DNA from: Flavobacteriaceae bacterium
GTDB lineage: Bacteria > Bacteroidota > Bacteroidia > Flavobacteriales > Flavobacteriaceae
DNA: 32,000 bases
Direction of reading: 5' to 3'
Assembly (NCBI GenBank): GCA_965224465.1
Contig: OZ245049.1
Location: 1,200,001-1,232,000, forward strand
Part shown: one piece after another, positions 7,904-30,123 of the stretch
Numbering within the stretch: position 1 is the first letter of the stretch
Layout of the letters: every line of letters begins with the position of its first letter
Notes under the pieces: generated by a model
The model's input: only the letters and a program-made list of their open reading frames with translations
What the model was told of the DNA's origin: nothing
Databases searched by the model: none
Translations under genes and position numbers: made by a program

Positions 7904-8182
7904 GTACTAATAACCGAACAAAAAAAATAAACGTAGCCACTAATGGAAAACGCATGCCTAAACGCTACTAACCAACAATAATCAGTATCAAAAAACAGTA
8001 AAAAACTATCCCCACAAAAGAGCGTGTGAGTAAATGCACTAAAACAGGTAGTATCTTATTAAGGTCCTTGTCGATAGCCTCTTAATTAAATCACGCAATC
8101 CCCATAGTATCATCTTTTGAGCCGGTATAGTCAACACTATGTTCATGCTGGGCGCTACGCACCGCACGAACACTTAGTTATT
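7904..8182. repeat. R module copy A (partial; only the stop-proximal 279 bp)
   Basis: Aligns with 10223..10500, 17338..17617 and about 29845..30123. It begins (minus strand) AATAACTAAGTGTTCGTGCGGTGCGTAGCGCCCAGCATGAACAT, 8 nt after the stop of the 8190..8708 gene. Similarity ends at gtactaataac. Confidence 0.85.
8039..8146 (-). CDS. Conserved 35-codon sORF inside the R module (copy A)
   Basis: Encodes MNIVLTIPAQKMILWGLRDLIKRLSTRTLIRYYLF. It has the same start, length and stop position as the sORFs in copies B and C. Confidence 0.3.
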   Translation of the reverse strand: MNIVLTIPAQKMILWGLRDLIKRLSTRTLIRYYLF

Positions 8183-8189
8183 AAGTAAG

Positions 8190-8708
8190 CTATTCCATTA
8201 CTTTATTAATTTCAGATTTTGGTAAGCACATTGTATTTGAGGTGTATCTCTCTTTAACGCTCATAAACGCAACTGCACTAATGACGCAACTTAAGCAATC
8301 TGGTTTTTCTTTAAGTAGTTCTTTAATTATTGGTATCACTTTTATTTCTTTTTTTGAATTTGTATCATTATTATCAAAAAAAACAGATATTCTATACTTG
8401 TATTTATCATTTTTTGAAACTAATTTTAAATTTCCAACTGATGTTAAAGCATATCCTATATTACTGAAATCAACAAAATCATTTTTTTTAAAATTTTCAT
8501 TTTCAAGAAAACAGTCCATTCTTGTATATGCGTATCCGTTTTGTAGATTATTAATAAGTTCTATATCTGATGAAAAATACAAATTATAATATTTATCAGA
8601 TTTAGTATCTTTTTCAATTTTAGTAAATTCGATATTAGCAATAGGTATATTATGACTACAAGACGAAAGAATAAATATTGCTGTAATTAGTAATATAAGA
8701 TTTTTCAT
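8190..8708 (-). CDS. Lipoprotein, candidate immunity protein for the upstream lipase
   Basis: A 172-aa ORF with lipoprotein signal MKNLILLITAIFILSSCSH. It starts 12 nt downstream of the lipase gene on the same strand. Confidence 0.6.
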   Translation of the reverse strand: MKNLILLITAIFILSSCSHNIPIANIEFTKIEKDTKSDKYYNLYFSSDIELINNLQNGYAYTRMDCFLENENFKKNDFVDFSNIGYALTSVGNLKLVSKNDKYKYRISVFFDNNDTNSKKEIKVIPIIKELLKEKPDCLSCVISAVAFMSVKERYTSNTMCLPKSEINKVME

Positions 8709-8719
8709 AATTAGATATT

Positions 8720-9673
8720 TTATTTGTTAATATGTTGTTGAATTAGTTCAAGTAACATATCAGATGCTGAAATATTTGTGTCTTTTAAATATTTAGTAAA
8801 CATAGTGCCTGCACTACCGTGATTACAATCACACTCATCGTTTATTTGCATACCTGTTTTAGGTTTCCATTGCCCTCCATAGTCTGCAACAAAATCATCA
8901 ACTTGATAATTTTCAGGAGAAGTACATATATTAATCCAATAATTGGCTTTTGGTTTGGGTGTAGACCAATATATATCTGAAAATAATTTTGCGTCAGCAC
9001 CTGTACCAACAGGATCTAACGTTATTAATAAATCAACATTATATCCTTTATCTGTTAAAATTTGTGATAAATGTGCTCCATTCCAACCACCAAGACTATG
9101 TCCAATGATATATACAGCCATTTTATCTTTATCTGTAATCGCTGAGATAACTTTGTCTTTAATATCTTCTTCTCCACGTACTTCATTATAACCTAAATAT
9201 ACATTTTCACAAAAAGTAGTTAAATTTTCATTATCGATAGTTTTTTCAAAATCATTTTTTACACCTTCCATAATTTTTGAAGCAGGCATTCCATAGAAAC
9301 CTTCTTTGTCTGAAGCTCCACCAATAAAAAATGTAATAATTTTTTTTGAGAATACTTTACTTTCAATACTCACCTTTTTGATAGGCTTAGACATATAAGC
9401 GTAAATTCTAACTTTTTCACATTTTTTTGCTTCATACTTGAAACAAACTGTCCCATTTTCTTCGTATAAATTTTCTTTTGTTAATTCTAAATCTACAATT
9501 TTACCATTATCGTCAATTTCTTCTGCCCACCAAATATTTTTTATTGGAGTTAATGTTGATTGTTGGAATTTTGTTGCTTTAAAAACATAGGTTTTACCGA
9601 CTTCCATTTCTTCTACTAATTCATCTTTTTCATTAAAAGGTCCTTCGACCTTTTCAACCAAAGGTTTAGACAT
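8720..9673 (-). CDS. Lipase-like alpha/beta hydrolase with GHSLGG motif, candidate antibacterial phospholipase effector
   Basis: A 317-aa ORF with no signal peptide. It has an N-terminal non-catalytic domain of about 100 aa and the class-3 lipase/PGAP1-type nucleophile elbow VYIIGHSLGGWNG. A periplasm-directed lipoprotein gene follows, the arrangement expected of an effector-immunity pair. Confidence 0.65.
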   Translation of the reverse strand: MSKPLVEKVEGPFNEKDELVEEMEVGKTYVFKATKFQQSTLTPIKNIWWAEEIDDNGKIVDLELTKENLYEENGTVCFKYEAKKCEKVRIYAYMSKPIKKVSIESKVFSKKIITFFIGGASDKEGFYGMPASKIMEGVKNDFEKTIDNENLTTFCENVYLGYNEVRGEEDIKDKVISAITDKDKMAVYIIGHSLGGWNGAHLSQILTDKGYNVDLLITLDPVGTGADAKLFSDIYWSTPKPKANYWINICTSPENYQVDDFVADYGGQWKPKTGMQINDECDCNHGSAGTMFTKYLKDTNISASDMLLELIQQHINK

Positions 9674-9688
9674 TTTTAGGCTCGCTGT

Positions 9689-9799
9689 TTATGCAGTTTC
9701 AGGTTTTCCAGAAATATACACTCTTGTAACTAATTCGTGATATTCTTTTTTATCTTTTGGATAACTGTCTTTTTCCCGCATATAAATTGTATCTGACAT
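9689..9799 (-). CDS. Possible 36-aa hydrophilic sORF ahead of the lipase gene
   Basis: Encodes MSDTIYMREKDSYPKDKKEYHELVTRVYISGKPETA. It starts 25 nt after the end of R copy B and stops 15 nt before the lipase ATG. No homolog was recognised. Confidence 0.2.
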   Translation of the reverse strand: MSDTIYMREKDSYPKDKKEYHELVTRVYISGKPETA

Positions 9800-9823
9800 A
9801 GTAATTTGGTTTTTATGGTTTGT

Positions 9824-10500
9824 AACACCTCTATATCAACAATAGCAACCCTAAAGTTGACGTTATTTCCGTAATACCTACAAGCACAATTTATAGTTTA
9901 AAGGTAGTTAATAATTTAAATTACCAGTATATAACTGGCGTATTTATTAACAAAAATTTACTGTAAAGTGTTACATGCATACTTTGTAGTATTTGCAGTA
10001 CTTGTAGGGGGTTTAATTGGTGCTAATTCCTTAGGGAGCGGTGTGTTTTTTAGCTGTATAATTTATTTTAACAGTAGTATTACTTCTAAAAAGAGGAATA
10101 CTGGGTGTTTTTTACGCTTAAAAAGTCTTCGTATTCAAACAATCGTTTTAACCGTTTAAAACGATTGTTTTAAGGACAAAAATAAAAATTAAGTCTTCTT
10201 TTAAAAAAAATATTGCCGTCAGGTACTAATAACAGAATAAAAAAACAAACGTAGCCACGTAATGGGAAACGCATGCCAAAATACTGCTGACCAACACTTA
10301 TCCGTATCTAAAAACAGTAAAAACATATTCCACAAAAGAGCGTGAGAGAAAATGACCTAAAAATAGGTGGTACCTATTAAGGTCTTTGTCGATAACCTCT
10401 TAATTAAATCACGCAATCCCCATAGTATCATCTTTTGAACCGGCATAGTCAATAGGATGTTCATGCTGGGCGCTACGCACCGCACGAACACTTAGTTATT
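9824..10500. repeat. R module copy B (full length, about 677 bp)
   Basis: Runs from aacacctctatatcaacaatagcaaccctaaagttgacg to gcaccgcacgaacacttagttatt. It is collinear with copies C and D, with scattered substitutions and indels that are not multiples of 3, including a 15-nt gap relative to C and D after caagcac. Confidence 0.9.
10357..10464 (-). CDS. Conserved 35-codon sORF inside the R module (copy B)
   Basis: Encodes MNILLTMPVQKMILWGLRDLIKRLSTKTLIGTTYF. The ATG sits in the 3' arm of the conserved hairpin. Confidence 0.3.
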   Translation of the reverse strand: MNILLTMPVQKMILWGLRDLIKRLSTKTLIGTTYF

Positions 10501-10512
10501 GGGCGTAGTATT

Positions 10513-10614
10513 TTATTGGCTTTCTGCTGTGTAAATCATAACACATTTGACAAATGTATCTTTAATATTTTTATTTAATTCTCTCATATTTTCAAATTGT
10601 TCCACTTTAATTTC
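10513..10614 (-). pseudogene. Orphan 3' gene end (33 codons plus stop) abutting the IS30 left end; possibly the displaced C-terminus of the AAA+ ATPase gene
   Basis: The frame is open right up to the IS boundary and reads EIKVEQFENMRELNKNIKDTFVKCVMIYTAESQ*. The stop lies 13 nt before R copy B. Confidence 0.3.
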
Positions 10615-10617
10615 TTA

Positions 10618-11734
10618 AATTCAACTAATAAACGCAACTTTTCGATTTGATTCTATGATGGTTATATTTTCAAAACAGAAAAGTAGGAAAACCTACCTTT
10701 CTTGTCTTGATGGATATGTATCTTACGGTCTCAAATCTCGAAAAAAGAAGTTGTATGAAACACATCACCCAAGCGCAAAGATACACAATTTGTTGCATGT
10801 TAAAACAAGGTTATAAACAGGTTGAGATAGCAGCTGCTATAGGAAAAGACAAGTCTGTTATTAGCAAAGAGATTAAGCGTAATTCAGACAAAAGAAATGG
10901 AGTTTACAAGCATGAATTAGCCCAAAAAAAGTATGCTAAACGTCATAAAGAAAAGCCTAAAAGAAAACGCTTTACAGAAGATATTCAACAAGCAATAGAG
11001 TTGTTATTGCGAGACGATTATAGTCCTGAGCAAGTAGTTGGTGTCCTAAAAAAACAAGGTAAAGAAACGGTGTCTATTGAGCGTATATATCAGCATATTA
11101 GGGAAGACAAGAGGAATGATGGTGATTTACATACACACCTTCGCAGACAGGGAAGGAGATATAGAAAACGTGGCTCATCAAAGGATTCTAGAGGGGTTAT
11201 AAAGAATCGTATTAGTATAGAACAACGCCCTGAAGTTGTTGAACAAAGAAATCGATTTGGAGATTTAGAGGTCGATTTAATCATAGGTAAAAACCATAAT
11301 CAAGCCATACTTACCGTAAATGATAGAGCTTCTGGAATGCTTAAAATGAAAAAAGTAAGCTCTAAAGAAGCAGTTGTTGTCACTAAAGCTATCAATGAAA
11401 TATTAGAAGACTGGAAGCCTTATCTACATACTATAACAGCTGATAATGGAAAAGAATTTGCAGGCCATGAGCAGGTTGCAGAAAATTTATGTATTGATTA
11501 CTTTTTTGCGCATCCATATCACTCTTGGGAAAGAGGATCTAACGAAAATTTAAATGGTTTGATTAGACAATATTTTGCCAAAGGAAGTGACTTTACAAAC
11601 CTAACAGATCAAAGAATCAAAGAGGTAGAAACAAAATTAAATAACAGACCTAGGAAGAGACATAAATATCAAAACCCTATATTTGTAATGGAACAATTAT
11701 TATTTAACTAAAAGTTGCGTTTGTGACTTGAATT
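10618..11734 (+). mobile_element. IS30-family insertion sequence (complete)
   Basis: Imperfect terminal inverted repeats: left AATTCAACTAATAAACGCAACTTTT, and the reverse complement of the right end AATTCAAGTCACAAACGCAACTTTT. It carries a single transposase ORF. Boundaries are uncertain by a few nt, and no clear target duplication was seen. Confidence 0.75.
10755..11711 (+). CDS. IS30-family transposase
   Basis: Starts MKHITQAQRYTICCMLKQGYKQVEIAAAIGKDKSVISKEIKRN (HTH), followed by a DDE-type core (EVDLIIGK...ITADNGKEF...ERGSNENLNGLIRQY). I prefer the ATG at 10755 over the track start at 10707 because the second IS30 copy starts at the equivalent position (31523). Confidence 0.85.
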   Translation: MKHITQAQRYTICCMLKQGYKQVEIAAAIGKDKSVISKEIKRNSDKRNGVYKHELAQKKYAKRHKEKPKRKRFTEDIQQAIELLLRDDYSPEQVVGVLKKQGKETVSIERIYQHIREDKRNDGDLHTHLRRQGRRYRKRGSSKDSRGVIKNRISIEQRPEVVEQRNRFGDLEVDLIIGKNHNQAILTVNDRASGMLKMKKVSSKEAVVVTKAINEILEDWKPYLHTITADNGKEFAGHEQVAENLCIDYFFAHPYHSWERGSNENLNGLIRQYFAKGSDFTNLTDQRIKEVETKLNNRPRKRHKYQNPIFVMEQLLFN

Positions 11735-12819
11735 CAGCTTTGATTACAAATAGTTTCATTAATTTCTATTGGTAATTCTGTGGAATAACTTTTGTTGAAT
11801 TTTTTAATAATGTCTTTAACTCTAAAGTCTACAAACTTTTTTTTGTCTTTTACGCTCAATAAAGTAAAAAAACCTTTGTAATCAAACCTAGACCTAAGTT
11901 CTGGCGAAATTCTTTTTGGAAAATCTTCTTTACTAACGTTTGATGTGAAAACTATTATGAACCCATTTAAATCAATTTCTTCTGCTAGAGAGCTAACTAT
12001 TTTCCCATTTTCCAGTACATCTAGAAAATAATTGAATAATGTTGTATTTGACTTTTCAAACTCATCAATTAGGATTAATCCAGTATCTGAACCTTTAACT
12101 CGAATGAATATTTCACCTTCATCACTACCTATATAACCTCTAGGACTTCCGATTAAAGAGTTTAAAGAATTATCGCTACTATAATTTCCGAAATTAATTT
12201 TCGCTAATTTTTCTTTACCTTTTAGAGATTTATGTATGGCTCTTGCAACTTCTGTTTTTCCGACACCAGAATCTCCCATTAAAAAAATAGAAAGAATCTT
12301 ATGTTCCCCTAACTTATTAAATACACGAAAATTTCTAATTAGGTCTTCAAAATCTGTTTTGAATTTATCGTGTCCATATATTCTCTTAGCGAATGAAGAT
12401 GTAAAATCAGAAATTTCTTCATTACTTAAATCTATTATTTTTTTGTGTTTTAACTTTTTGCGTTTTCCCGTTACTTCCTCTTCATCTATTACTTCAAAGT
12501 TTTCAACTATATCAAGGTCTTGAAATTCTTCGAAACAAAACCTAAGTTCGTATTCAAATATTTTTTTGAAATTATTGTCTGCTATGAAAATAGTTTCTTG
12601 TGGGAATAGTGGAAATACAGATTCAGAATTATATTGAATATTATTAATTTGAGCTAAGGAACTTATGTCTACTATTTGAGTATATTCATTTGTTTCTGAA
12701 GCTTTTTCAAAATTACGTATGCTATCAGTAATTGAAACTATTTCAATTCCTTCTTCAGCTTTTAAGTCTTTATAAAATGCGAAGTAATTTTTATTGTAAA
12801 AAAATAGTTTATCAATCAT
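11734..12819 (-). CDS. ClpA/B D2-type AAA+ ATPase (Dodola DolB-like, tentative)
   Basis: A 361-aa ORF. Motifs: Walker A LMGDSGVGKTEVA, Walker B LILIDEFEKS, sensor-1 VFTSN, and SPELRSRFD resembling the ClpB RPEFLNRID motif. It starts 2 nt after the stop of the upstream gene. Its stop codon coincides with the IS30 right end. Confidence 0.7.
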   Translation of the reverse strand: MIDKLFFYNKNYFAFYKDLKAEEGIEIVSITDSIRNFEKASETNEYTQIVDISSLAQINNIQYNSESVFPLFPQETIFIADNNFKKIFEYELRFCFEEFQDLDIVENFEVIDEEEVTGKRKKLKHKKIIDLSNEEISDFTSSFAKRIYGHDKFKTDFEDLIRNFRVFNKLGEHKILSIFLMGDSGVGKTEVARAIHKSLKGKEKLAKINFGNYSSDNSLNSLIGSPRGYIGSDEGEIFIRVKGSDTGLILIDEFEKSNTTLFNYFLDVLENGKIVSSLAEEIDLNGFIIVFTSNVSKEDFPKRISPELRSRFDYKGFFTLLSVKDKKKFVDFRVKDIIKKFNKSYSTELPIEINETICNQS

Positions 12820-12820
12820 T

Positions 12821-13672: not shown

Positions 13673-13700
13673 TTAATTGGTTTGTTTTTCTATTTTGAGT

Positions 13701-13860
13701 GGTTTTTCACATTACACACAACGTTTGGTATAAGGTTAGTAGCGGATTAATACACACGGATTTTAAGGTTAAATACGAACTTTTATAAAAGAGAAACAGC
13801 CATAAGTTAAGCACAAAACCGCTATTAATTTTATACGGTGTTCTACACAGTTTACCTATA
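13701..13860. repeat. S element copy 1 (about 160 nt conserved spacer after the immunity gene)
   Basis: Aligns with 22813..22975. On the minus strand, TGTGTAGAACACC comes right after the stop, followed by the small hairpin CCGTAT-AAAATTA-ATAGCGG and a T-run (terminator-like), and later CCGCTACTAACCTTATACCAAACGTTGTG. Confidence 0.7.
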
Positions 13861-14764
13861 TTTTTATTCGCTCTTCCTTAAAATTATCTAACAACCATTC
13901 ATTCTCATAATTATTATAACGGACTATTTTAACACCTTCAATAGACGATTTTATTTGATATAAAAAATAAATAACACCTTTATTAGTCCTATTTCCAGTA
14001 TATTTATAATGGCTTCTATCCAAATTACCTAAATACTCAAAACTATCTTCTTCTTTTATAACTTTGTTTTTTATCAAAACGCTCTTAATTTCAGTACTAA
14101 CCTTTTCTTTGTTTTGTGTTAAGTTTAATGTCTCAAAAAGTTTCTCATTATCTTTTATTTTTTTTACAGAAGTTTCATTAAAGACAACCCTTGTCAATTG
14201 ATTTTTTATAATATCAAATTTTAATATAGGAAGAAATCCACTAGATAGTTCTGTTCCACCACCACTTTCAATAAATATATCATCCTTTATAACTATTATT
14301 TCTGCTGAATATAGTGGATGCCCATAATTCATATACGAACCTGAATTAATAGAACCTCCAAAATATTCATTTTTTATAAACTTTTTATCTTCAAAAAAGG
14401 AATACGTGTTTAAATATGTTTTTCCGTGATTATAAAGCATTAAATAAATTATTTTATTCTCCAAAATAACATCACCAATAATTATTCTTTTTCTAATATC
14501 TCCGAAGTGTTCTTGTTCTTTTTCATATATGCTAGACCTTTCAAAATGGTCTATCAAAACACTATCTTTTTTACTATTATATACGTAAATATTCCACGAA
14601 GTTTTCTTTTCCTTTGTGTCGGTGTCAATAAACATTTTCACTTCTAAATTATTGAGTTTTTTAGTGTAGGCTTCCATTGTTTTTATAGTTTTATTTATTG
14701 TTTGTGCTTTACAACTCGTGAGATTGACTAGCAATGCGATTAAAAATACTATTTTTTGTATCAT
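13856..14764 (-). CDS. Lipoprotein, candidate immunity protein (module 1)
   Basis: A 302-aa ORF with signal MIQKIVFLIALLVNLTSCKAQ. It overlaps the toxin gene by 4 nt (ATGA). It is a paralog of 22970..23887. Confidence 0.7.
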   Translation of the reverse strand: MIQKIVFLIALLVNLTSCKAQTINKTIKTMEAYTKKLNNLEVKMFIDTDTKEKKTSWNIYVYNSKKDSVLIDHFERSSIYEKEQEHFGDIRKRIIIGDVILENKIIYLMLYNHGKTYLNTYSFFEDKKFIKNEYFGGSINSGSYMNYGHPLYSAEIIVIKDDIFIESGGGTELSSGFLPILKFDIIKNQLTRVVFNETSVKKIKDNEKLFETLNLTQNKEKVSTEIKSVLIKNKVIKEEDSFEYLGNLDRSHYKYTGNRTNKGVIYFLYQIKSSIEGVKIVRYNNYENEWLLDNFKEERIKI

Positions 14765-15651
14765 AATTCTTTGGTTATAGCGTTGTCTTCATAGTGATGA
14801 GTATCACTTGTAGTTTTATATAATTTATAGGCTAAATATTTATTCATATCAACGGTTAGTGTTTTATATAAAAAAGGAACTCTACCACCAGAAGCAGTCT
14901 GTAAGTCGAGATGTGCACCAGAATGTCTTACATCTAAAAAAGGTTCACCTAAAGCATCTTTTTTACAGAAAAGAACACCTGTAAGAGCGTTAGATGCATA
15001 GGTATTAAGCAGTTCTTTCGATTTCGCAAAATAATTACTGCCTTTTACACCATAAGAAGGGTCGTAGTATTTTATTGTAGTTCCTTTATTAAATGTGGCA
15101 AAAACGTGATCCCAAAAAAAGTGCATTGGTTTGTCATTTCCTTGTGCTTTATTTCCTATTGGTGGATTTTCAACAGGTGCTTTTGGGTCGTTTATCGTCC
15201 ACGTTTTTACTAAAAAAATGGAATTTGTAAATTTAGAAATACTTGGGCTTGGAACAAGATTAGCACCAACAGCGGAAGTAAAAGCAAATTGATTAACTTT
15301 TATACCTTGAGAAAGGGCAATATGTATGAAAAAAAATGTGAACTCACCACATCGAGCCTCACCATCTCGCAATAGCGTACGTAATCCTCTTGAAAAACTT
15401 CCTGTCAGAGAACTGGTATTTCTCCAATACCCCAAACCTTGACTACTCAAATCTTTGTCTAAATAAACAGTACCTTCCCTTGCCCTAGTAATTTTCAAAG
15501 GCTGAAATTCTTTAAAAAATGCATCTAATATTTGCTCTTCGTTATCTTCTGTTTTTTTAGTAGAATTACCCAGTCCTTTCGCTTGCTTACAACCTATCCA
15601 TAGCAAAGTTTCTGAAATATTATTTTTAGAGCCATTAAATGTGGCTTTCAT
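14761..15651 (-). CDS. C-terminal fragment of the toxin gene: transglutaminase/papain-like Cys-His-Asp domain (module 1, split)
   Basis: A 296-aa ORF containing GEARCGEFTFFFIHIALSQGI (Cys), HFFWDHVFATF (His) and KYYDPSYG (Asp). It is collinear with residues of about 295-586 of the intact 586-aa paralog. Confidence 0.7.
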   Translation of the reverse strand: MKATFNGSKNNISETLLWIGCKQAKGLGNSTKKTEDNEEQILDAFFKEFQPLKITRAREGTVYLDKDLSSQGLGYWRNTSSLTGSFSRGLRTLLRDGEARCGEFTFFFIHIALSQGIKVNQFAFTSAVGANLVPSPSISKFTNSIFLVKTWTINDPKAPVENPPIGNKAQGNDKPMHFFWDHVFATFNKGTTIKYYDPSYGVKGSNYFAKSKELLNTYASNALTGVLFCKKDALGEPFLDVRHSGAHLDLQTASGGRVPFLYKTLTVDMNKYLAYKLYKTTSDTHHYEDNAITKEL

Positions 15652-16926: not shown

Positions 16927-17617
16927 AACACCTCTATATCCACAATAGCAACCCTAAAGTTGACGTTATTTCCGCAATACCTACAAGCACTACAGAGGCT
17001 GTTAAATTTATAGTTTAAAGGTAGTTAATAATTTAAATTACCAGTATATAACTGGCGTATTTATTAACAAAAGTTTACTGTAAAGTGTTACATGCATACT
17101 TTGTTGTATTTGCAGTACTTGTAGGGCTTTAATTGGTACTAATACCTTAGGGAACGGTGTGTTTTTTTGCTGTATGATTTATTTTAACAGTATTATTACT
17201 TCTAAAAAGAGGAATACTTGGTGTTTTTTTACGCTTAAAAAGTCTTCGTATTCAAACAATCGTTTTAACCGTTTAAAACGGTTATTTTAAGGACAAGAAT
17301 AAAAATTAAGTCTTCTTTTAAAAAAAATATTGCCGTCAGGTACTAATAACAGAATAAAAAAACAAACATAGCCCCGTAAAGGGAAACGCATGCCAAAATA
17401 CTGCTGACCAATACTTATCCGTATCTAAAAACAGTAAAAACATATCCCACAAAAGAGCGTGAGAGAAAATGACCTAAAAACAGGTTATATCTGATAAGGT
17501 CTTTGTTGATAGCCTCTTAATTAAATCGCGCAACCCCCATAGTATCATCTTTTGAGCCGGTATAGTCAACAGGATGTTCATGCTGGGCGCTACACACCGC
17601 ACGAACACTTAGTTATT
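16927..17617. repeat. R module copy C (full length, 691 bp)
   Basis: Collinear with copies B and D. Its stop-proximal end supplies the last codons (AAT AAC TAA) of the PanE-like gene. Its other end overlaps the 13-bp inverted repeat at 16920..16932. Confidence 0.9.
17474..17581 (-). CDS. Conserved 35-codon sORF inside the R module (copy C)
   Basis: Encodes MNILLTIPAQKMILWGLRDLIKRLSTKTLSDITCF. Compared with copy B, the first 29 codons show 5 synonymous and 2 non-synonymous differences. Confidence 0.3.
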   Translation of the reverse strand: MNILLTIPAQKMILWGLRDLIKRLSTKTLSDITCF

Positions 17618-18553: not shown

Positions 18554-18617
18554 TTTTTATATTTTTTACAAATATGAATACTCTCTAATGAATAAGTACT
18601 TGATAAATGACAAGAAA

Positions 18618-18895: not shown

Positions 18896-18950
18896 GTATC
18901 CGTCCGACGAAGTACGTATAGGAATTAAAAATACATAAAAAAACCTCGAT

Positions 18951-20636
18951 TTATTGATCGAGGTTTAAATTTTGTGGAAATAGCTCACTTAATTTTTGAG
19001 CATTGTAATCAGGGATTATATCCAGTATTTTTTTCATCCATTTATAGGGGTTTACTTGGTGTTTTTTACAAGTCCCAAAAAAGGAATAGAACATCGCTGC
19101 ATTTTTTGCAGCATCATGGCTACCTGCAAATAAATAATTTTTACGTCCAATAGCTAATGTTCTGATAGATCCTTCTACTAGGTTATTATCTAGTTCTAAA
19201 GTACCGTCATACAGGTAGGCTTTTAAGTAGTCCCATCGTTTTAATGTATAAGTAATTGCTTTTCCTAGTGGACTTTTCGGTAAGCTTCCTTGGGTGTTAT
19301 GGATCAACCATTTTATAAATGTATCCATTATTGGTTGTGCTTTATCTAGGCGATAAGCATGCCGTTGCTCAGGAGTAAATTCCTGTTTTTTACAATGTCG
19401 CTCAATGGCATATAATTGTTGAATGAGTACCATCGCATGACTCGCTTTTACTTTGTCATAGTCTAGTGCTTTCTCAAAATAACGACGTGCATGTGCCATA
19501 CACCCTACTAAAGTGACATCTTTTTTATGTGCAAATTCATCATATACAGCGTAGCCATCTGTTTGTAAATACCCTTTAAAGTTTTTAAGCATTTCTCTAG
19601 GTCCATGTTTAGATCTAGAGGGACGATAATCAAACAATACCATTTTTTGTATGGGTGAATAGTACACCCAATGATATCCAGTATGAGTTTTTCCTTTTTT
19701 CTGTTTGTCTAGCACTGGAATAGTTGATTCATCGGCCTGTACATATCCTTGTGACAGCACCGTGTTTTTCATAGCCTGATACAGCGGCTTAAGTAAGTGT
19801 CCTAAGCTGTTTTGCCATCCATTTATTGTAGATGAACTTATAGAGATTCCTTCTCGTTTAAAACGTTCTATCTGTCGATAATACGGTAAGTGATCTAAGA
19901 ATTTATCAATCAATAGCTGTGCTAGCAGGCTGTTTGATGCTACAGATTTTTCAATAGCAAAACTTGGTAAATCAGCCATAATAACGGTCTTAATACCTAA
20001 AGGGTTTCCATTGTCAATCAATGTGTCTTGTACTTTCTTTTTTAAGGCGTATTTTGGTCTGACATATCGTTTTATGTATAGCTTTGTGGGTACAAGTTCT
20101 AATTTATCTGTAATTTCTTCACCTATTTTTATTCGGTTCTCTATAGTCTCTTTAGGCTCTAAATTAATAATTTCAACAGGTAAATGACTGGGGAGATTTA
20201 AACTTCCAATCGTTCTTTTTTTAGCCTTTTTACGTTGATATGTAATGTTTACAGGAGCTTCTTCTTCCTGGGGCATCTCTTTTAAAACTTCGAAAGGGAG
20301 TTGCATTTGAAAAGGGTTATTAGCCATTATAAAACGCTCACGTTTTGTCCCAAAAATCATACGACGTAATTGCTCTAATTGAAATTGTCCATATCCGTAT
20401 TTTGTCTCTAATTCTTTATATTGAGCTTCTAGGATAGCCTTTTGTAAAGTAACGTCTTTTGTCTTTATAGTAAGTAACTCATTCTTTGCGCTAAGAGAAC
20501 TTGTCTTTGTATTAAGTAACTCATTCTTTGAGCTAAGAGAATTTGTCTTTTTGATAAGTAAATCTGACTTAGAATTAGCCTCCTGTAATAGGGCTATAAG
20601 TGCTTTTTTTGATAGCTGTTCTAAGTCTTTTTCCAT
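18951..20636 (-). CDS. IS66-family transposase (TnpC)
   Basis: A 561-aa ORF with an N-terminal coiled-coil or leucine-zipper-like repeat and IS66-type core motifs (ADESTIPVL, GYHWVY, CMAHARRYF). Confidence 0.85.
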   Translation of the reverse strand: MEKDLEQLSKKALIALLQEANSKSDLLIKKTNSLSSKNELLNTKTSSLSAKNELLTIKTKDVTLQKAILEAQYKELETKYGYGQFQLEQLRRMIFGTKRERFIMANNPFQMQLPFEVLKEMPQEEEAPVNITYQRKKAKKRTIGSLNLPSHLPVEIINLEPKETIENRIKIGEEITDKLELVPTKLYIKRYVRPKYALKKKVQDTLIDNGNPLGIKTVIMADLPSFAIEKSVASNSLLAQLLIDKFLDHLPYYRQIERFKREGISISSSTINGWQNSLGHLLKPLYQAMKNTVLSQGYVQADESTIPVLDKQKKGKTHTGYHWVYYSPIQKMVLFDYRPSRSKHGPREMLKNFKGYLQTDGYAVYDEFAHKKDVTLVGCMAHARRYFEKALDYDKVKASHAMVLIQQLYAIERHCKKQEFTPEQRHAYRLDKAQPIMDTFIKWLIHNTQGSLPKSPLGKAITYTLKRWDYLKAYLYDGTLELDNNLVEGSIRTLAIGRKNYLFAGSHDAAKNAAMFYSFFGTCKKHQVNPYKWMKKILDIIPDYNAQKLSELFPQNLNLDQ

Positions 20637-20704
20637 ACATTAAATATACGAAAAATATACATGAACAGCCTGGTTTTATTAGGTTTTTTACCTGTAAAAA
20701 GACA

Positions 20705-21046
20705 TTAATAACGTTTCCTTTGTTGGATGTTTTTTATAGACAGTCCATCAAGAAGCATCACCATTTGGCTGTATTTCATTTGTATACTTCCTTTCAGATT
20801 ATCATACACCGGAAGTTCAAAAGTACCTCGTTCCAATCGTTTATAATACAGTACAAATCCACCTGCTTGCCAATGCAATAGTTTTATTTTGTTTCGAGGT
20901 TTATTTATGAAGATAAAAACAGCTCCATTACTAGGATCCTCTTCTAAATTATTACGGATAACACCTGACAAACCATTAAATCCTTTACGCATATCTGTGG
21001 GTTCTAGGTACAGATGAAAATCAAGTTCACTTGAAAGATTTAGCAT
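20705..21046 (-). CDS. tnpB: IS66 accessory protein TnpB
   Basis: A 113-aa ORF containing TDMRKGFNGLSGVI...IKLLHWQAGGFVLYYKRLERGTFELP, the hallmark IS66 Orf2 signature. Confidence 0.85.
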   Translation of the reverse strand: MLNLSSELDFHLYLEPTDMRKGFNGLSGVIRNNLEEDPSNGAVFIFINKPRNKIKLLHWQAGGFVLYYKRLERGTFELPVYDNLKGSIQMKYSQMVMLLDGLSIKNIQQRKRY

Positions 21047-21047
21047 A

Positions 21048-21356
21048 TTACAAATGAATTAAATTTTGTAAATCGATAAGTGTAATCTCTTTGTTAATGA
21101 CCAAATTTACACCTGTTGGATACTCGATTTTAAAACTATCTAAAATAGAATTTCTGCTGTTTTCAATAGGAGCATCAATAAGTTCAACCTTTGAAAATCC
21201 ACTGGCATTTTTGGAGGTCAATTTCTTATTCCAGTACCTAAATTTACAAAGTGTAATTTTATGACTTTTACAATAATCTTCCAAGGTTAAATCACTCAAC
21301 TTCCAATCGGAAACAACAGCTGTCATATAGGCTCGTTTTTCTTCGTTTTTTCTCAT
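21048..21356 (-). CDS. IS66 accessory protein TnpA (HTH)
   Basis: A 102-aa ORF that is the first gene of the IS66 operon and ends 1 nt before tnpB. Confidence 0.7.
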   Translation of the reverse strand: MRKNEEKRAYMTAVVSDWKLSDLTLEDYCKSHKITLCKFRYWNKKLTSKNASGFSKVELIDAPIENSRNSILDSFKIEYPTGVNLVINKEITLIDLQNLIHL

Positions 21357-21414
21357 GCGTCAAAAATAGAAGCTATTTTTCCACTAAAAAATATGGGGAT
21401 GGTCGGACGGATAC

Positions 21415-21726
21415 AAATGAACAGTCGGTTATGGTTTGATAGATTTCTTTTGTTGGCTGTTTTTTAAAAAAAGATAAAAAGTCATTTACAAAACAAGGAG
21501 CAGAATAAATATTTGTTGTAACTATTTCGTTATCTTCATTTAGAATATATGAGCGTACATATCCTTTCTCTAAAAAATATGTTTTTGTACTAATAGTGTC
21601 TTTGTCAAGTAGCGTAGTATTCTTATCTAATTTGAAATCACAGAACGTTTCCGTAATTTTCATTACTGTCTCCTTTTGGATAGGAAACAAAGAATGGAAA
21701 TAATTATTAAGTATGGATTTGTCCAT
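21415..21726 (-). pseudogene. Crp/Fnr-family regulator, N-terminal (cNMP-binding-like) fragment
   Basis: Encodes MDKSILNNYFHSLFPIQKETV...YFLEKGYVRSYILNEDNEIVTTNIY...TITDCSF, and then runs into the IS66 end. The track ORF 21373..21726 includes 14 IS-derived codons. Confidence 0.8.
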
Positions 21727-21903
21727 TAGTCTGTTTTTCAGTTACGCACAACGTTACGTATATGCTTAGTGCTGGTTAAAAATACAATAATTTTCTGTTA
21801 AGCATTTAGCCAAATTTTTTCTTTTCCAATTTTAACGCAAAATTGAAAATTTTGCGGACTTCATAAATATGCCTAAACTCGGGTTAAACACTGACTTTAA
21901 GCA

Positions 21904-22353
21904 TTAAGTATATACACTGTTGTGCGCAGGCTTTCCACGTTCTAGTTCATTTTCTATTCTTTTTTCGAGTTCTTTCTGTTTAAATTCAAACCAATTTTGT
22001 CTAAAATCAGAATGGTCAACTTTATTCTTAAAATTCTGAAATGGTTTTTTGTTTGCTAAAACATTTTCCAATTCCGACTTTAGATTTTTGTCAGACAACT
22101 GCTCAACAAAAAGTTCCATAATTTTAAACGACTCAAAGTTTTCTAAAGTCTCAAATTTTATAAAATCCGCTTTATGTTTTTCCACTTTTTCTAAACTTTC
22201 ATTAAAAGCTTCTTTAAAATCTTCCTCGTCCGAAAATTGTGAAAAACTCGGAATTGAAACAATTTCGTCAGTTTTAGAATTGTAATAGCAGTCAAATCCA
22301 GAATCTAATTCTTGAGCTATTTCCTTTATTAATTCTGACTGTTTTCTTATCAT
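21904..22353 (-). CDS. UPF0158-like small protein (orphan immunity-type gene, tentative)
   Basis: A 149-aa acidic protein. The C-terminal KKPFQNFKNKVDHSDFRQNWFEFKQKELEKRI resembles the UPF0158 G.G.FRRFKD....W..F signature. It is ATGA-coupled to the upstream gene. Confidence 0.5.
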   Translation of the reverse strand: MIRKQSELIKEIAQELDSGFDCYYNSKTDEIVSIPSFSQFSDEEDFKEAFNESLEKVEKHKADFIKFETLENFESFKIMELFVEQLSDKNLKSELENVLANKKPFQNFKNKVDHSDFRQNWFEFKQKELEKRIENELERGKPAHNSVYT

Positions 22354-22802: not shown

Positions 22803-22812
22803 TCCATTACGA

Positions 22813-22975
22813 TGGTTTTTTCAGCTTGCGCACAACGGTTTGTATAAGGTTAGTAGCGGATTTAAATACAAAAAGTTATTGGTTAAGCACAAATTTATAA
22901 AAAGGAAACAGACTTTAAATTTAGCACAAAAACCGGTATTAATTTTATACCGTGTTCTACACAGTTTATCTACAT
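22813..22975. repeat. S element copy 2
   Basis: See 13701..13860. Its hairpin is CGGTAT-AAAATTA-ATACCG, with a compensatory G-C/C-G swap relative to copy 1. Confidence 0.7.
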
Positions 22976-23887
22976 TTTTATTCGTTCTTCCTTGAAACCA
23001 TCTAATAACCATTCGTTTTCATAATTATCATAACGGACTATTTTAACACCTTCAATAGACGATTTTATTTGATAGAAAAAATATGTAGTACCTCCTTTAA
23101 CTTTATTAATCTGTTCTAAATCAATCTTAGCACTAAAATCATATAAAAAATCTAGGTATTTATAATTAGCACTCTCTTTTAATAATTTATTTTCAATTAA
23201 TACTTTCTTAATTTCAGTACTTATCTTTTCTTTGTGTTTAATTAAATTTAATGTTTCAAAAAGATGTTTATCATCTTTTCTTTTTTTTACAGATGTATCA
23301 TTAAAAATAATTTTTTTTAATTGATTAATTGATTTATTAAAATTTAAAAATTGCGCAACCATCATTGATTGTACACCGCCTCTTCCATAAATAAAAATTT
23401 CATCTCCTGTTAAAATTTTTATTTCTGCGACATATGATGGATGTCCGAAGTTTAGATATGAACCCATACCAATAGCCCCTCCAAAATATTCTTTTTTTAT
23501 AAATTTCTTATCTTCAAAGAATGAATATGTTTTTAAATATGTTTTTCCGTGATTATAAAGCATTATATAAATTGTCTTATCTTCTAAAATAGCGTCACCA
23601 ATAATTATTCTTTTTCTAATATCTCCAAAATGTTCTTGTTCTTTTTCATATATCCCAGACCTTTCAAAATGGTCTATCAAAACACTATCCTGTTTACTGT
23701 TGAATACATAAATATTCCAAGAGGTCTTTCTTTCTTTCGTGTCGGTATCAATAAACATTTTCACTTTTAATTTGTTTATTTCTTTAGTATAGGCTTCCAT
23801 TGTATTTATTGTTTTATTTGTTGTCTGTGCTTTACAATTAGTAAAGTTTACTAGCAATGCGATTAAAAATAATATTTTTTGTATCAT
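22970..23887 (-). CDS. Lipoprotein, candidate immunity protein (module 2)
   Basis: A 305-aa ORF with signal MIQKILFLIALLVNFTNCKAQ and a 4-nt overlap with the toxin gene. Confidence 0.7.
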   Translation of the reverse strand: MIQKILFLIALLVNFTNCKAQTTNKTINTMEAYTKEINKLKVKMFIDTDTKERKTSWNIYVFNSKQDSVLIDHFERSGIYEKEQEHFGDIRKRIIIGDAILEDKTIYIMLYNHGKTYLKTYSFFEDKKFIKKEYFGGAIGMGSYLNFGHPSYVAEIKILTGDEIFIYGRGGVQSMMVAQFLNFNKSINQLKKIIFNDTSVKKRKDDKHLFETLNLIKHKEKISTEIKKVLIENKLLKESANYKYLDFLYDFSAKIDLEQINKVKGGTTYFFYQIKSSIEGVKIVRYDNYENEWLLDGFKEERIKM

Positions 23888-25644
23888 AATTCTTTGATTA
23901 TAGCATTGTTTTCAGAATAAAACATTCTACTTGTAGTTTTATATAGTTTAAAGGCTAAATATTTATTCATATCAAGGGTTAATGTTTTATATAAAAAAGG
24001 AACTCTACCTCCAGAAGCAGTTTGCAAGTTGAGATGTACTCCTGAATACCGTGCGTCTAAAAAAGGCTCACCTAAAGTATCTTTTTTACAAAAAAGAACA
24101 CCTGTAAGAGCATTAGATGCGTAGGTGTTAAGTAATTCTTTAGGTTTAGTAAAATAATTACTACCTTTTATACCGTAAGAAGGGTCGTAGTATTTTATTG
24201 TAGTTCCTTTGTTGAATGTGGCAAAAACGTGATCCCAAAAAAAGTGCATAGGCTTGTCATTTCCTTGTGCTTTATTTCCTGTTGGGGGATTTTCAACAGG
24301 TGCTTTCGGGTCATTTATCGTCCACGTTTTTACTAAAAAAATGGAATTAGTAAATTTCGAAATACTTGGACTTGGAACAAGATTAGCACCAACAGCGGAA
24401 GTAAAAGTAAATTTATTGACTTCAATACCTTGTGAAAGGGCAATATGGATGAAAAAAGAAGTGAATTCACCACAACGAGCTTCGCCGTCACGTATTAAGG
24501 TTCGTAAATACCTTGAGAAACTTCCTGTCAGAGAACTGGTATTTCTCCAATACCCTAAACCTTCGCTAGTTAAATCTTTGTCTAAGTAAGCAGTTCCTTC
24601 CCTTGCCCTAGTAATTTTTAAAGGTTCAAATTCTCTAAAAATAGCATCTAATATTTGCTCTTCGTTATCTTCTGTTTTTTTACTATCGCTACCTAAGCCT
24701 TTGGCTTGCTTGCAACCTATCCAAAGCAAAGTTTCAGTAATATTTTTTTTACTATTAAATGATGCTTTGATTTGTAGTGTATCATTTTCATTAATTTCTT
24801 TTTCAAAATCACTATATTTAGGTTCTTTCCAAGTAACATAGAGAGTGTTTTTAGAGGAACCCGCCTTTGTCCAAGTTTTTCCATCTTCAGAGTATTCAAA
24901 AAGAAGTTCAAAATTTGTTATATATTGTATGGTATCTTCATAGGGTTTATTATTACTTTTAAAGGTTACTTCAAATTCTCCGCTTGTTTTTCCTTTTTCA
25001 ATGTCAAAAGTATATTTTTTGTCCTTGTCCGTTACTCTTATTTTTGGTGCTTTGGTAAATGGATTTTTAGAGGTTACTTTTAAGGTTGCTGTCAATTTTA
25101 TTTTATCGGTACTTGCAAATGTTATAGGTATGAGGTCGGGTTTTATTGTGCTGTAATCGTCAGGGTTTGTTCTTTTAGACAACCAATGATAGTGCTTACC
25201 GCCATCTTCGAGTATATAGAATTTTTTGTAATCACTAAAATCTTTTACGTCATCACTACATATATCGTATTTTGTATCAAAAATTACTTTTGTCAGTACT
25301 AAAGTAGCTTTTGGAGCAGCGGCTTCTCCGTAGGTTTTTATTCCTGTAATGATTTTAGAAGTCTTTTTATCTTGTTGCTTTTTAGCCCCTTCAAGTTCAA
25401 TGGTGTTACCCGTTATTTTTTTGTGACGAACAAGTTTTTTACTCATTTTTTCGGTAATGGCATTTTCTCTAATGTTGTTTTCTTCCTCCCAAAGGGCTTT
25501 AAGTTCGTTTTTTAGGTCGGTTATATAGTTTTCCAAATCCAATCCAAAAAGTTCGTTTCTGTTTGTTGATGGATTATTGCTTTCGTCTATTTTGTCCGCA
25601 CTGCTAAATAGGTTTATCCAAAAGTTTGATTTTTCTTTACTCAT
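23884..25644 (-). CDS. Intact 586-aa toxin candidate: N-terminal delivery region plus C-terminal transglutaminase/papain-like Cys-His-Asp domain
   Basis: Has no signal peptide. The motifs GEARCGEFTSFFIHIALSQGI, HFFWDHVFATF and KYYDPSYG give a C...H...D order and spacing like the Transglut_core fold. It sits between a PAAR-like gene and a lipoprotein gene, with ATGA overlaps on both sides. Confidence 0.75.
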   Translation of the reverse strand: MSKEKSNFWINLFSSADKIDESNNPSTNRNELFGLDLENYITDLKNELKALWEEENNIRENAITEKMSKKLVRHKKITGNTIELEGAKKQQDKKTSKIITGIKTYGEAAAPKATLVLTKVIFDTKYDICSDDVKDFSDYKKFYILEDGGKHYHWLSKRTNPDDYSTIKPDLIPITFASTDKIKLTATLKVTSKNPFTKAPKIRVTDKDKKYTFDIEKGKTSGEFEVTFKSNNKPYEDTIQYITNFELLFEYSEDGKTWTKAGSSKNTLYVTWKEPKYSDFEKEINENDTLQIKASFNSKKNITETLLWIGCKQAKGLGSDSKKTEDNEEQILDAIFREFEPLKITRAREGTAYLDKDLTSEGLGYWRNTSSLTGSFSRYLRTLIRDGEARCGEFTSFFIHIALSQGIEVNKFTFTSAVGANLVPSPSISKFTNSIFLVKTWTINDPKAPVENPPTGNKAQGNDKPMHFFWDHVFATFNKGTTIKYYDPSYGIKGSNYFTKPKELLNTYASNALTGVLFCKKDTLGEPFLDARYSGVHLNLQTASGGRVPFLYKTLTLDMNKYLAFKLYKTTSRMFYSENNAIIKEL

Positions 25645-25994: not shown

Positions 25995-26100
25995 ATTTTA
26001 TCTTTTTTCACCGTTATACTTCGTTGTTCTGAATTGTGTAGAACGGTGAAATATGACACGTGGTGCAGATTTAAAGAAATGAACTCTAAATGAACTCTGA

Positions 26101-26159
26101 GCCAAACAGTTGATTTTGTTTTATCTTATTTTTCACCAAAACAAAATCAACTGTTTGGC
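26101..26159. repeat. Perfect 22-bp inverted repeat (possible terminator or insulator between hamB and module 2)
   Basis: GCCAAACAGTTGATTTTGTTTT, a 15-nt loop, then AAAACAAAATCAACTGTTTGGC. It is flanked by three AATGAACTC direct repeats and a second hairpin GGACTGA..TCAGTCC. Confidence 0.6.
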
Positions 26160-26236
26160 GGTGTCTATTAATTGGACTGAACATAAAATGAACTCAGTCC
26201 GCACTATGTGATATATTTGGTGTTAGGTTTTCGTGT

Positions 26237-28537: not shown

Positions 28538-29403
28538 TTTATAACAGTTGTTTTTATGTCTCTTACTTTATCTACAGGTAATAGTATAAAATAGATTGAA
28601 TATGGTATTGACAATTCAAATTGAGTAGCAGTATATTTTTCATTAATATGTTTGATTACAGAATCTATACTATAATCATAACCTCGTTTATGTTTGTCAT
28701 AAAGTATGATAATTGGATATATTAATTTTATATTATACTTTTTAACATATTCCATTATATTTACCATTGGGTTTTTTTCCCATTCATTTATTATTGTTTC
28801 TACTTTTGTTCCTGTAATATTAAAGCTATTCTTGAAATTTGTAATAGCAAGAAGATTTTTCGATAAATATTTATCCGAAATAGCTTTATCAATATTATCT
28901 AACGCACTATCAACACCAGATTTAAACGTGTTTCTGAATTTAACTTCACCAAACCATAACTCTGTTATTCCTTTATTTTCAATTAAATGATAAGAATCAT
29001 ACCCTTTAGTTTCGGACGACTCCAATGGGTTATAAAAATAGCCCCTAGAAATAACAGCTTTTGCGTTAAATTTTGCATAAAGCATACAGTATAATATAGT
29101 TTCACCGTGAAAACCATAACTTATTTTATATTTTTCCTTTGCATATTCATTATACTTCATTTTTGTAAGTAAAGCGATAGTATGCATATTCATCATATCC
29201 TTATCTTCTAAATCGAATTCATTAAAAGAATAATCAACGATAGAATTATAAATAATAGTTGCAAGAGTATCATTACTTACTGATAAAAAACATTTATCAT
29301 TTTCTGTAGAGAATATTGATTTATCAATTTTTAGTTGAGGATTAGGTAAATCATATTTGTAAACAATAGACTTGGATATTAGATCTAATAATTCATTTCT
29401 CAT
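28507..29403 (-). CDS. hamA: HamA-type (DUF1837-like) nuclease partner of the helicase
   Basis: A 298-aa ORF with a PD-(D/E)xK-like signature GYDSYHL...ELWFGEVKF. Its position and size immediately upstream of the SF2 helicase match the Hachiman architecture. Confidence 0.6.
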   Translation of the reverse strand: MRNELLDLISKSIVYKYDLPNPQLKIDKSIFSTENDKCFLSVSNDTLATIIYNSIVDYSFNEFDLEDKDMMNMHTIALLTKMKYNEYAKEKYKISYGFHGETILYCMLYAKFNAKAVISRGYFYNPLESSETKGYDSYHLIENKGITELWFGEVKFRNTFKSGVDSALDNIDKAISDKYLSKNLLAITNFKNSFNITGTKVETIINEWEKNPMVNIMEYVKKYNIKLIYPIIILYDKHKRGYDYSIDSVIKHINEKYTATQFELSIPYSIYFILLPVDKVRDIKTTVIKWIESRKPQI

Positions 29404-29430
29404 TATATTGCTTTTTTTTGCATGAAACCT

Positions 29431-30123
29431 AACACCTCTATATCCACAATAGCAACCCTAAAGTTGACGTTATTTCCGCAATACCTACAAGCACTACAGA
29501 GGCTGTTAAATTTATAGTTTAAAGGTAGTTAATAATTTAAATTACCAGTATATAACTGGCATATTTATTAACAAAAATTTACTGTAAAGTGTTGCATGCA
29601 TACTTTGTAGTATTTGCAGTACTTGTGGGGGTTTAATTGGTGCTAATTCCTTAGGGAACGGTGTGTTTTTTAGCTGTATTATTTATTTTAACAGTATTAT
29701 TACTTCTAAAAAGAGGAATACTGGGTGTTTTTTTACGCTTAAAAAGTCTTCGTATTCAAACAATCGTTTTAACCGTTTAAAACGGTTATTTTAAGGACAA
29801 GAATAAAAATTAAGTCTTCTTTTAAAAAAAATATTGCCGTCAGGTACTAATAACAGAATAAAAAAACAAACATAGCCACGTAAAGTAAAACGCATACCAA
29901 AAGCACTGCTGACCAATACTTATCCGTATCTTAAAATAGTGAAAACATATTCCACAAAAGAGCGTGAGAGAAAATGACCTAAAAATAAGTGATACCTATT
30001 AAGGTCTTTGTTGATAGCCAATTAATTAAATCGCGCAATCCCCATAGTATCATCTTTTGAGCCGGTATAAGTCAATAGGATGTTCATGCTGGGTGCTACG
30101 CACCGGACGAACACTTAGTTATT
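29431..30123. repeat. R module copy D (full length, 693 bp)
   Basis: Collinear with copies B and C and ends 28 nt before the hamA start. It carries a 1-nt insertion (gtataAgtcaat) that frameshifts the sORF. Confidence 0.9.

Follow-up and report, generated by a model that had tools for sequence, protein, structure and literature searches.

The 32,000-nt stretch analysed here (the window: GCA_965224465.1, contig OZ245049.1, positions 1,200,001 to 1,232,000, from a Flavobacteriaceae bacterium) holds a run of co-oriented gene cassettes, some of which are joined by direct copies of a module of about 690 nt, here called R. With about even confidence, we take the window to be part of an integron-like cassette array in a Cellulophaga-like flavobacterium, in which short attC-like sites and R form the joints between cassettes. 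It would be a stretch of the CALIN type (cluster of attC sites lacking integron-integrase), since no integrase lies inside the window. The sequence of R further suggests, in an equally balanced judgement, a long inter-cassette module whose right end acts as an attI-like docking point and that may also insulate cassettes or drive their expression. The array combines hairpins, covariation within them, joints at G|TT, a match between the own start and own end of cassettes, shuffling between relatives and an intron inserted at a site, which together are what defines integron cassettes. An earlier, sequence-only reading of this DNA had described a cassette array reminiscent of integrons, with R as its delimiter. 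The resemblance is borne out by the hairpins, the G|TT joints, the shuffling and the intron, but the unit was wrong: the blocks bounded by R hold one to four cassettes each, separated by short attC-like sites that this reading had missed, and R itself is without attC structure.

The gene content was checked with Pfam and PADLOC. The cassettes encode a SIR2 fragment; two small membrane proteins; HamA/HamB (Hachiman); two DUF4280 (PAAR-like) effector modules; WapI immunity with UPF0158; a cyclic nucleotide (cNMP)-binding protein with PanE; PDC-M37A/B, which the earlier reading had taken for a "Dodola-like pair"; and a 317-aa lipase-like protein with a 172-aa lipoprotein. All array genes lie on the minus strand and have a GC content of 24–36%. 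No Pfam or PADLOC match was obtained for the 317-aa protein.

Short attC-like sites and cassette boundaries

Six short attC-like sites of 82–215 nt are present in the window, five of which are imperfect hairpins with covariation, ending at G|TT:

26036..26236, minus strand: attC-like site e1, between HamB and DUF4280 cassette 2
22828..22968, minus strand: attC-like site e2, between DUF4280 cassette 2 and the WapI/UPF0158 cassette
21744..21933, minus strand: attC-like site e3, between the WapI/UPF0158 and cNMP/PanE cassettes, with its inverse-core box within the 3' end of the UPF0158 gene
13714..13854, minus strand: attC-like site e4, between DUF4280 cassette 1 and the PDC-M37 cassette
31000..31085, minus strand: small attC-like site (about 82 nt), GCTCATAAC...GTTATGCGC, after the truncated SIR2-like gene
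40..254, minus strand: attC-like site after the 935-aa VIT-domain gene (45 bits, E = 3e-7)

DNA folds of the short sites display a 6–9-bp R box (…AAC/GTT…), an unpaired spacer, an L box of about 17–20 bp and a variable loop. Covariation was assessed in an alignment of seven bottom-strand sequences from the window, from a marine Flavobacteriaceae metagenome-assembled genome (L001) and from Cellulophaga algicola. The bottom-strand model has 88% of its cells paired, versus 29–50% with slid partners, and compensatory changes occur in 10 of the 23 pairs of the consensus; the covariation score was reached by none of 500 shuffles. Three conserved bottom-strand G.T pairs (present in 7/7, 6/7 and 7/7 sequences) correspond to A.C mismatches on the top strand, and the bottom-strand fold was the more stable one in five of five short sites. 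A covariance model built from the same seven-sequence alignment found five matches in the window, nine in the 20-kb C. algicola locus and one each in L001 and in L011, a third lineage described below, all of them on the cassette strand.

The boundaries of the cassettes follow a rule of their own: directly behind the upstream G|TT, a cassette opens with the reverse complement of the inverse-core box found at its own 3' end. The first 12 nt of a cassette, when compared with the reverse complement of its own end, agree on average at 9.4 of 12 positions, versus 7.0 ± 1.0 for non-own pairs, and the own-pair complementarity amounts to 9–12 of 12 in 8 of 12 cassettes. The inverse-core box of e1, GAAAACCTAAC, is complementary to the start of the Hachiman cassette, GTTAGGTTTC, at 29433, and the two together fit the core consensus RYYYAAC/GTTRRRY exactly (ACCTAAC/GTTAGGT); the other sites keep AAC/GTT only. 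The own start and own end boxes are GTTCTACACAATT and AACTGTGTAGAAC in the DUF4280 modules, and GTTGTGCGCAAGCT and AGCCTGCGCACAAC in the WapI/UPF0158 cassette. The cNMP/PanE cassette has the same start, GTTGTGCGTAACTGAAAA, in a contig from ENA (L009), but the attC half before it is a different one there. Among the cassettes ending in R, those of L001 have own-start complementarities of 12/12 and 11/12, located immediately upstream of AACTAAGTG.

The C. algicola locus (L007; strain DSM 14237, complete genome, CP002453 3769738–3790091) carries its nine attC-like sites within 20 kb, between DUF4280, PAAR and other cassettes, together with two to three group II introns that run antisense to these cassettes. 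The intron at about 3972–5833 of the locus is inserted antisense in an inverse-core (R'') box, at TTGT/T. Such insertion at integron attC sites is the described habit of group IIC-attC introns (PMC7923331), and by analogy the C. algicola intron appears to have inserted in the same way, which supports the attC-like identity of the sites.

The site at 40..254 indicates that the array architecture continues past the interval reported by the sequence-only reading (7904–30123). The FG-GAP, exosortase-like and VIT genes in this part of the window may also be cassettes, with the array running off the low end. Weaker attC-like candidates were seen at 3603–3802 and 4560–4716. The two DUF4280 modules (13688–15985 and 22802–25100) are 73–90% identical paralogues, attC-like sites included, and what had been listed as PAAR-like modules 1 and 2 is, as judged from this identity, a diverged duplicate pair.

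Module R as a cassette joint

Repeat finding and MAFFT alignment across the window located R in the four direct copies that had been noted before, all on the minus (gene) strand, three of them full (about 690 nt) and one consisting of the 5' 279 nt only:

29431..30123, minus strand: R copy D, full, after cassette c1 (two small membrane-protein open reading frames, ORFs); its right end, ...GAGGTG|TT, leads into the Hachiman cassette
16927..17617, minus strand: R copy C, full, beginning within the last PanE codons; its right end leads into DUF4280 cassette 1
9824..10500, minus strand: R copy B, full, with a 14-nt internal deletion, after the 3' end of the IS30-split PDC-M37B gene; its right end leads into the lipase-like/lipoprotein cassette
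7904..8182, minus strand: R copy A, 5' 279 nt only; homology stops about 12 nt past an internal GTTATTAG and is followed by IS91/recombinase remnants

In the MAFFT alignment, AATAACTAAGTGTTCGT opens every copy and GATATAGAGGTGTT closes each of the full ones. Identity between full copies is 89–99% depending on the segment, with the 5' third the most diverged (89–93%) and the remainder at 91–99%; copy A is 88–92% identical to the others over its first 128 nt and 71–81% identical beyond. Copies B and D have extra upstream bases in common (CTACGCCC and AAAGCCAAT), which fall outside the core conserved across lineages.

Most joints are short attC-like sites, and R, a second and much longer type, occupies the slot of an attC site: its left edge comes after the inverse-core (R'') box of the upstream cassette, and its right edge reads ...GGATATAGAGGTG|TT. 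Eight junctions at this right end (three in the window, two in L009, two in L001 and one in L011) break off at G|TT, with unrelated DNA beyond; a ninth, at about 6016 in L001, has ...GGGGGGTGT|AGTGC instead, without GTT. The DUF4280 operon is homologous to C. algicola sequence precisely up to the edge of R, at 16929. Directly behind R, the window and the nearly identical L009 continue with different genes. The sequence-only reading had R end 25–50 nt before the next start codon, which holds for HamA (27 nt) and DUF4280 (47 nt); behind copy B, by contrast, the distance is 24 nt to a 36-aa ORF (9689–9799, located between this copy and the lipase-like gene) and 150 nt to the 317-aa gene itself. 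That copy C supplies the last codons of PanE was correctly seen, and the stop codon lies inside R as well. PanE homology to the genes of other genomes stops at 17627 or 17605.

Outside the window, R was recovered by several routes. L009, in which the PanE region is 99.8% identical to that of the window, was reached via proteins and has two further right-hand parts of R, each before other DNA. L011 was reached via a 42-aa homologue of a small ORF in R and represents the third R lineage. The parts of R conserved across lineages are the first 115–225 nt, a palindrome, AACCGTTTTAAACGGTT, and the last 55–75 nt, while the middle is replaced. Exact-word scans of JGI metagenome contigs found no R, only one chance match (L010), and those of viral contigs found none; nor did BLASTN of R against plasmid and phage collections yield a match. 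In L001 and L011, R stands behind unrelated genes, and it was not found behind the PanE genes (88–90% protein identity) of the other genomes L002–L006. An origin of R in the native 3' flank of PanE, as had been proposed, is thus rejected. Homologous DUF4280 operons in C. algicola (L007) and L008 have no R upstream either, and R as a conserved leader of these operons was rejected on the same grounds.

Several results weigh against this reading of the window and of R. The four window cassettes that end in R match their own starts at background level (7–8 of 12), so that R may have spread here by ordinary homologous recombination. R is also rare: an exact 21-mer scan of 185,579 representative genomes, one for each species, found it in a single one, the metagenome-assembled genome L001. 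No integron integrase, attI or cassette promoter (Pc) was identified in the window, where an IS30-like element at 31381 interrupts the array at its head. The attC-like covariance model reached at best 11.9 bits on R, and on the wrong strand; folds of the R 5' module do not pair its ends and are no better than shuffled; and the end-to-end duplex energies of five R copies lie within about 2 standard deviations of shuffles. Promoter evidence in R is weak, consisting of one TAYGTTTG match (about R position 245) with a 23-nt spacer, found by eye, and sigma-70-type promoter scans of R gave background levels. Folding, covariance model and duplex tests together rule out R, or its 5' module, as a giant attC. 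The last 120 nt of R looked plausible by eye as an attC of the e type, and this was not supported by the covariance model.

R could instead be no more than a duplicated intergenic region, composed of the 3' untranslated region or terminator of one operon and the promoter or leader of the next, and spread by homologous recombination or segmental duplication in an island rich in insertion sequences (ISs), with only the short sites being real machinery. The background complementarity of the R-ending window cassettes would be expected under this explanation, as would the upstream bases common to copies B and D, the presence of a 73–90% duplicate pair in the DUF4280 modules themselves and the lack of an attC-like fold in R. 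We nevertheless consider it rather unlikely: in three lineages, unrelated cassettes are flanked by the same two R ends and the middle of R is replaced, the same G|TT cut recurs in the eight junctions (leaving the ninth, in L001, without GTT), the left end of R in L001 adjoins perfect cassette-specific inverse-core boxes, and the genes after R are different in the window and in L009.

The partial copies of R suggest another possibility, in which integrative elements accreted in tandem at one attachment site. Each block, from the right part of one R to the left part of the next, would then be a single element, and a full R would be a fusion of attR with attL that corresponds to attP, the crossover lying close to the internal GTTATTAG (R position about 270). 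The array ends in copy A, of which just the left 279 nt are present, with homology breaking off about 12 nt past GTTATTAG; the left module in L001 likewise ends at GTTAT, and only right-hand parts are present in both R copies of L009 and in the first R of L001. However, the left boundaries of these right-hand parts vary (R positions about 315 and 450 in L009, and about 320 nt into the L001 version) and abut IS elements (ISL3, IS91 remnant), so that IS truncation explains them equally and, for the partial copies as a group, is the simplest account. Since the blocks also hold internal cassettes with their own sites, and no integrase is associated with them, tandem accretion appears unlikely.

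Interior of R and proposed mechanism

Three features stand out inside R:

17474..17608, minus strand: small ORF (copy C, 44 codons), with counterparts at 10357–10491 (copy B) and 8039–8173 (copy A)
17445..17464, minus strand: terminator-like hairpin and T-run, about 10 nt past the small-ORF stop, scored in copy C only
17251..17290, minus strand: mid-R palindrome AACCGTTTTAAACGGTT, also at 10134–10173 and 29755–29794, and conserved in L011

The sequence-only reading had considered R to be non-coding. This stands for the sequence beyond the first ~110 nt, where codon periodicity is lacking and a decayed gene was rejected as an explanation, but the first 90–135 nt carry what looks like a coding signature, so that R is not wholly non-coding. 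The ORF there, of 30–44 codons, opens at GTG directly after a TAA, which in copy C is the stop codon of PanE. It is intact in six of seven copies from three lineages, the exception being copy D, where it starts at 30114 and is frameshifted. Its variable sites are distributed over codon positions 3, 1 and 2 in the ratio 11:3:2 (P about 0.004), and it encloses a 42-nt block that is identical between genera. An exhaustive protein search with the small ORF returned one true homologue only, the 42-aa protein P0131 of L011, which is 62% identical. The first 33 nt of the ORF form a conserved hairpin that sequesters the GTG start; the best fold is on the sense strand, which is also favoured by its G.U pairs. 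In L011, an IS110-family element (5100–6443) is inserted in this hairpin, precisely between AACTAAG and GTGTTCG, and in L009 an IS21 element (9541–12000) lies past the first ~30 nt of R, behind PanE. Sequence homologous to the terminator-like hairpin of copy C is conserved in the other R copies and in L001. The right end of R contains two imperfect direct repeats, GGAAATAACGTC and GGATATAGAGGTG.

A rather improbable explanation for this anatomy is that R is a non-autonomous mobile element, either a miniature inverted-repeat transposable element (MITE) or an IS remnant, or else a cassette in its own right whose small toxin-like gene stabilizes the array. Sharp R ends in several lineages, an ORF whose start is hidden within a hairpin of the sense strand, like that of type I toxin mRNAs, and the IS110 and IS21 insertions at the 5' hairpin in relatives are all in keeping with it. 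On the other hand, no convincing terminal inverted repeats or target site duplications were found at the R ends in alignments by eye (no dedicated search was made, and repeat finding used a 40-nt minimum), and all copies have one orientation and sit at cassette joints, which speaks against the ordinary MITE or IS remnant that the sequence-only reading had itself named as the alternative to its proposal. There is no space for a separate attC before R, the PanE stop being within it; no antisense RNA or antitoxin was identified; and phage and plasmid collections contained no matches.

Still less probable, and to our minds very much so, is a large structured non-coding RNA or shared riboregulatory leader, as might be suggested by a length of ~690 nt, the 42-nt block identical between genera and the conserved 5' hairpin. 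Rfam gave no match at E<=1 across the whole window, the z-score of the whole-R fold was -1.7, and a compensatory change was seen in just 1 of the 53 predicted pairs in the hairpin and structure analysis of R. Moreover, the middle of R is not conserved between lineages, and the conserved block lies inside the small ORF. R is not a hairpin site and not a known RNA, and it is probably not a MITE; we regard it as a new type of array element.

Within an integron-like array, these features could be combined as follows. A tyrosine recombinase encoded outside the window would exchange cassettes at G|TT, and the right end of R would serve as a double-stranded, attI-like docking point for the insertion of new cassettes, which would account for the different genes that follow R in the window and in L009. 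The interior of R would be an expression or insulation unit, made up of a hairpin-guarded small ORF after the upstream stop, a terminator-like hairpin, a palindrome and a leader into the next cassette. The small ORF, if translated in coupling to the upstream stop, might together with the terminator bring upstream transcription and translation to an end. Within the array, duplication or homologous recombination, rather than precise site-specific events, probably gave rise to the multiple R copies, because complementarity is at background (7–8/12) and copies B and D have their extra bases in common. If a circle of the Hachiman cassette were formed, its expected junction would be ...CATATTTCACCG|TTAGGTTTCATGC, and that of an R circle would be ...GAGGTGTT|AACTAAGTG.

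Surrounding elements and comparison with known systems

The sequence-only reading had seen no recombinase in the window. No integron integrase is indeed present, but four other elements were missed:

10614..11738 (about), plus strand: IS30-family element, between the PDC-M37B gene body and its last 30 codons with R copy B
18896..21414, minus strand: IS66-family element, splitting the cNMP-binding gene; its flanks are contiguous in L009, with an 8-bp overlap
31381–32000: second IS30-like element, cutting the array upstream (head)
7518..7789, plus strand: Xer-like tyrosine recombinase and IS91 remnant, with an intact copy in L009 at 3860–6134

The AAA-ATPase gene of PDC-M37B (11734–12819) is cut off by the IS30 element from its apparent last 30 codons (10513–10605), and this candidate defence system has probably been inactivated. 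The IS66 element has ORFs at 21048–21356, 20705–21046 and 18951–20636, with a 42-nt tandem duplication at 20459–20542, and the 8-bp overlap of its flanks would fit a target duplication. Over its last 620 nt, the window matches an IS30-like element of L009 (15174–15793) at 100% identity; here, this element truncates the SIR2-like defence gene (31102–31404) to about 100 codons. The recombinase trace (7668–7789) belongs to an IS91-associated element at the 3' end of the array. Further IS91-family remnants were found at 3826–3991, and one remnant lies directly after R copy A. The intact IS91-associated Xer-like recombinase of L009 was rejected as an integron integrase, as it scored 165.7 bits versus a cut-off of 265.

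The cNMP/PanE pair (17609–18553, with 18557–18895 and 21415–21804) is also present in L002, L004 and L009, and PanE is 72–94% identical across flavobacterial genera (Tenacibaculum, Lutibacter, Flavobacterium, Chryseobacterium) in varied neighbourhoods; in L004 it lies within a long run of small co-oriented genes. The pair behaves as a mobile cassette. No tRNA genes were found in the window. L011 opens with 60 nt that look like the 3' portion of an oppositely oriented tRNA or tmRNA gene, which ARAGORN does not call because the contig end truncates it. Four 49-nt tandem repeats (2622–2805) precede the array in L001, and a search of the head of that array for an oppositely oriented integrase gave a metallophosphoesterase as the neighbouring gene. 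In the low part of the window, five tandem 171-nt (57-codon) repeats (4971–5954) lie within the gene for the 785-aa FG-GAP protein.

The closest known system is the sedentary chromosomal integron or CALIN. As in these, cassettes are co-oriented, functionally unrelated and shuffled between relatives; the sites are imperfect hairpins with AAC...GTT core boxes, an unpaired spacer, a long L stem and a bottom-strand fold; cassette starts are complementary to their own inverse-core boxes; a group II intron lies antisense at R''; and there are phage-defence cassettes, which have also been reported for Vibrio integrons (bioRxiv 10.1101/2024.07.02.601686). The short sites pass the structural tests, while core consensus and length agree in part, most of the sites here having retained only the AAC/GTT of RYYYAAC/GTTRRRY. 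Typical attC sites measure about 57–141 nt, and the sites here (82–215 nt) mostly exceed that range. In addition, the window differs from integrons in having no identified IntI, attI or Pc, in the 2–4 genes held by many cassettes, in the 690-nt non-hairpin R, which has no counterpart there, and in its flavobacterial host. In the IntegronFinder 2.0 survey of RefSeq from 2022, the sole complete integron reported from Bacteroidetes proper was that of Salinibacter ruber (10.1101/2022.02.28.482270). Judged by titles and abstracts, the literature searched for integrons with Cellulophaga or Flavobacteriia offered nothing relevant.

The right end of R shares with attI (and its Pc region) the lack of a hairpin, the end at G|TT and the varied cassettes that come after it. 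The attI1 site has direct repeats, DR1 and DR2, of which the imperfect direct repeats of R, GGAAATAACGTC and GGATATAGAGGTG, are reminiscent. Unlike attI, which is single and adjoins the integrase gene, R is present in multiple copies inside the array and is preceded by a cassette rather than by intI.

The rAID-1 (recombinase-associated acquired interbacterial defence) arrays of Bacteroidales, which are defined by a 5' XerD-like recombinase (at least 44% identity to BF9343_RS08045), contain repetitive intergenic sequences that were termed "reminiscent of integrons" by their authors (bioRxiv 10.1101/471110). The array described here belongs to the same phylum and is likewise a co-directional, low-GC array with immunity genes related to type VI secretion (T6SS) and with repetitive intergenic sequences. 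It contains at least two co-directional low-GC genes with repetitive intergenic sequences, by which rAID-1 arrays are recognized, a generic property that does not establish membership. In contrast to rAID-1, the window has no XerD-like recombinase, the 5' end of the array being cut by an IS, and the array carries complete effector modules and phage-defence systems rather than mainly orphan immunity genes. Orphan toxin–immunity arrays of the Rhs and contact-dependent inhibition (CDI) type are similar in that repeated homologous segments, possible substrates for homologous recombination, precede alternative toxin/immunity modules. In those loci, however, the repeats are pieces of the main toxin gene, taken from its conserved coding region. 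R, by contrast, is for the most part non-coding, bears no relation to the DUF4280 genes and is found before defence systems too.

A more far-reaching version of the integron-like reading is a doubtful though conceivable one: that the window samples an unrecognized flavobacterial system in which attC-like hairpins are combined with a multi-copy "landing-pad" R of about 0.7–0.9 kb, having an attI-like right end and a conserved 30–44-aa peptide and seeding several sub-arrays. Such a system would employ a recombinase other than canonical IntI, and its cassettes would carry whole T6SS effector and phage-defence modules.

In Bacteroidota, integrons are considered to be very rare. In the marine flavobacteria described here, among them C. 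algicola DSM 14237, it is an integron-type cassette architecture that organizes T6SS effector modules, immunity genes and the anti-phage systems Hachiman, PDC-M37 and SIR2. The junction sequences given above are concrete and can be tested by PCR. Recombinase action on these sites, if it occurs, would account for the way in which flavobacteria exchange entire weapons and defences. The concept of integrons as defence biobanks would then be extended to a new phylum and to multi-gene cassettes, and R would be a new array element that combines a docking end with a small gene.

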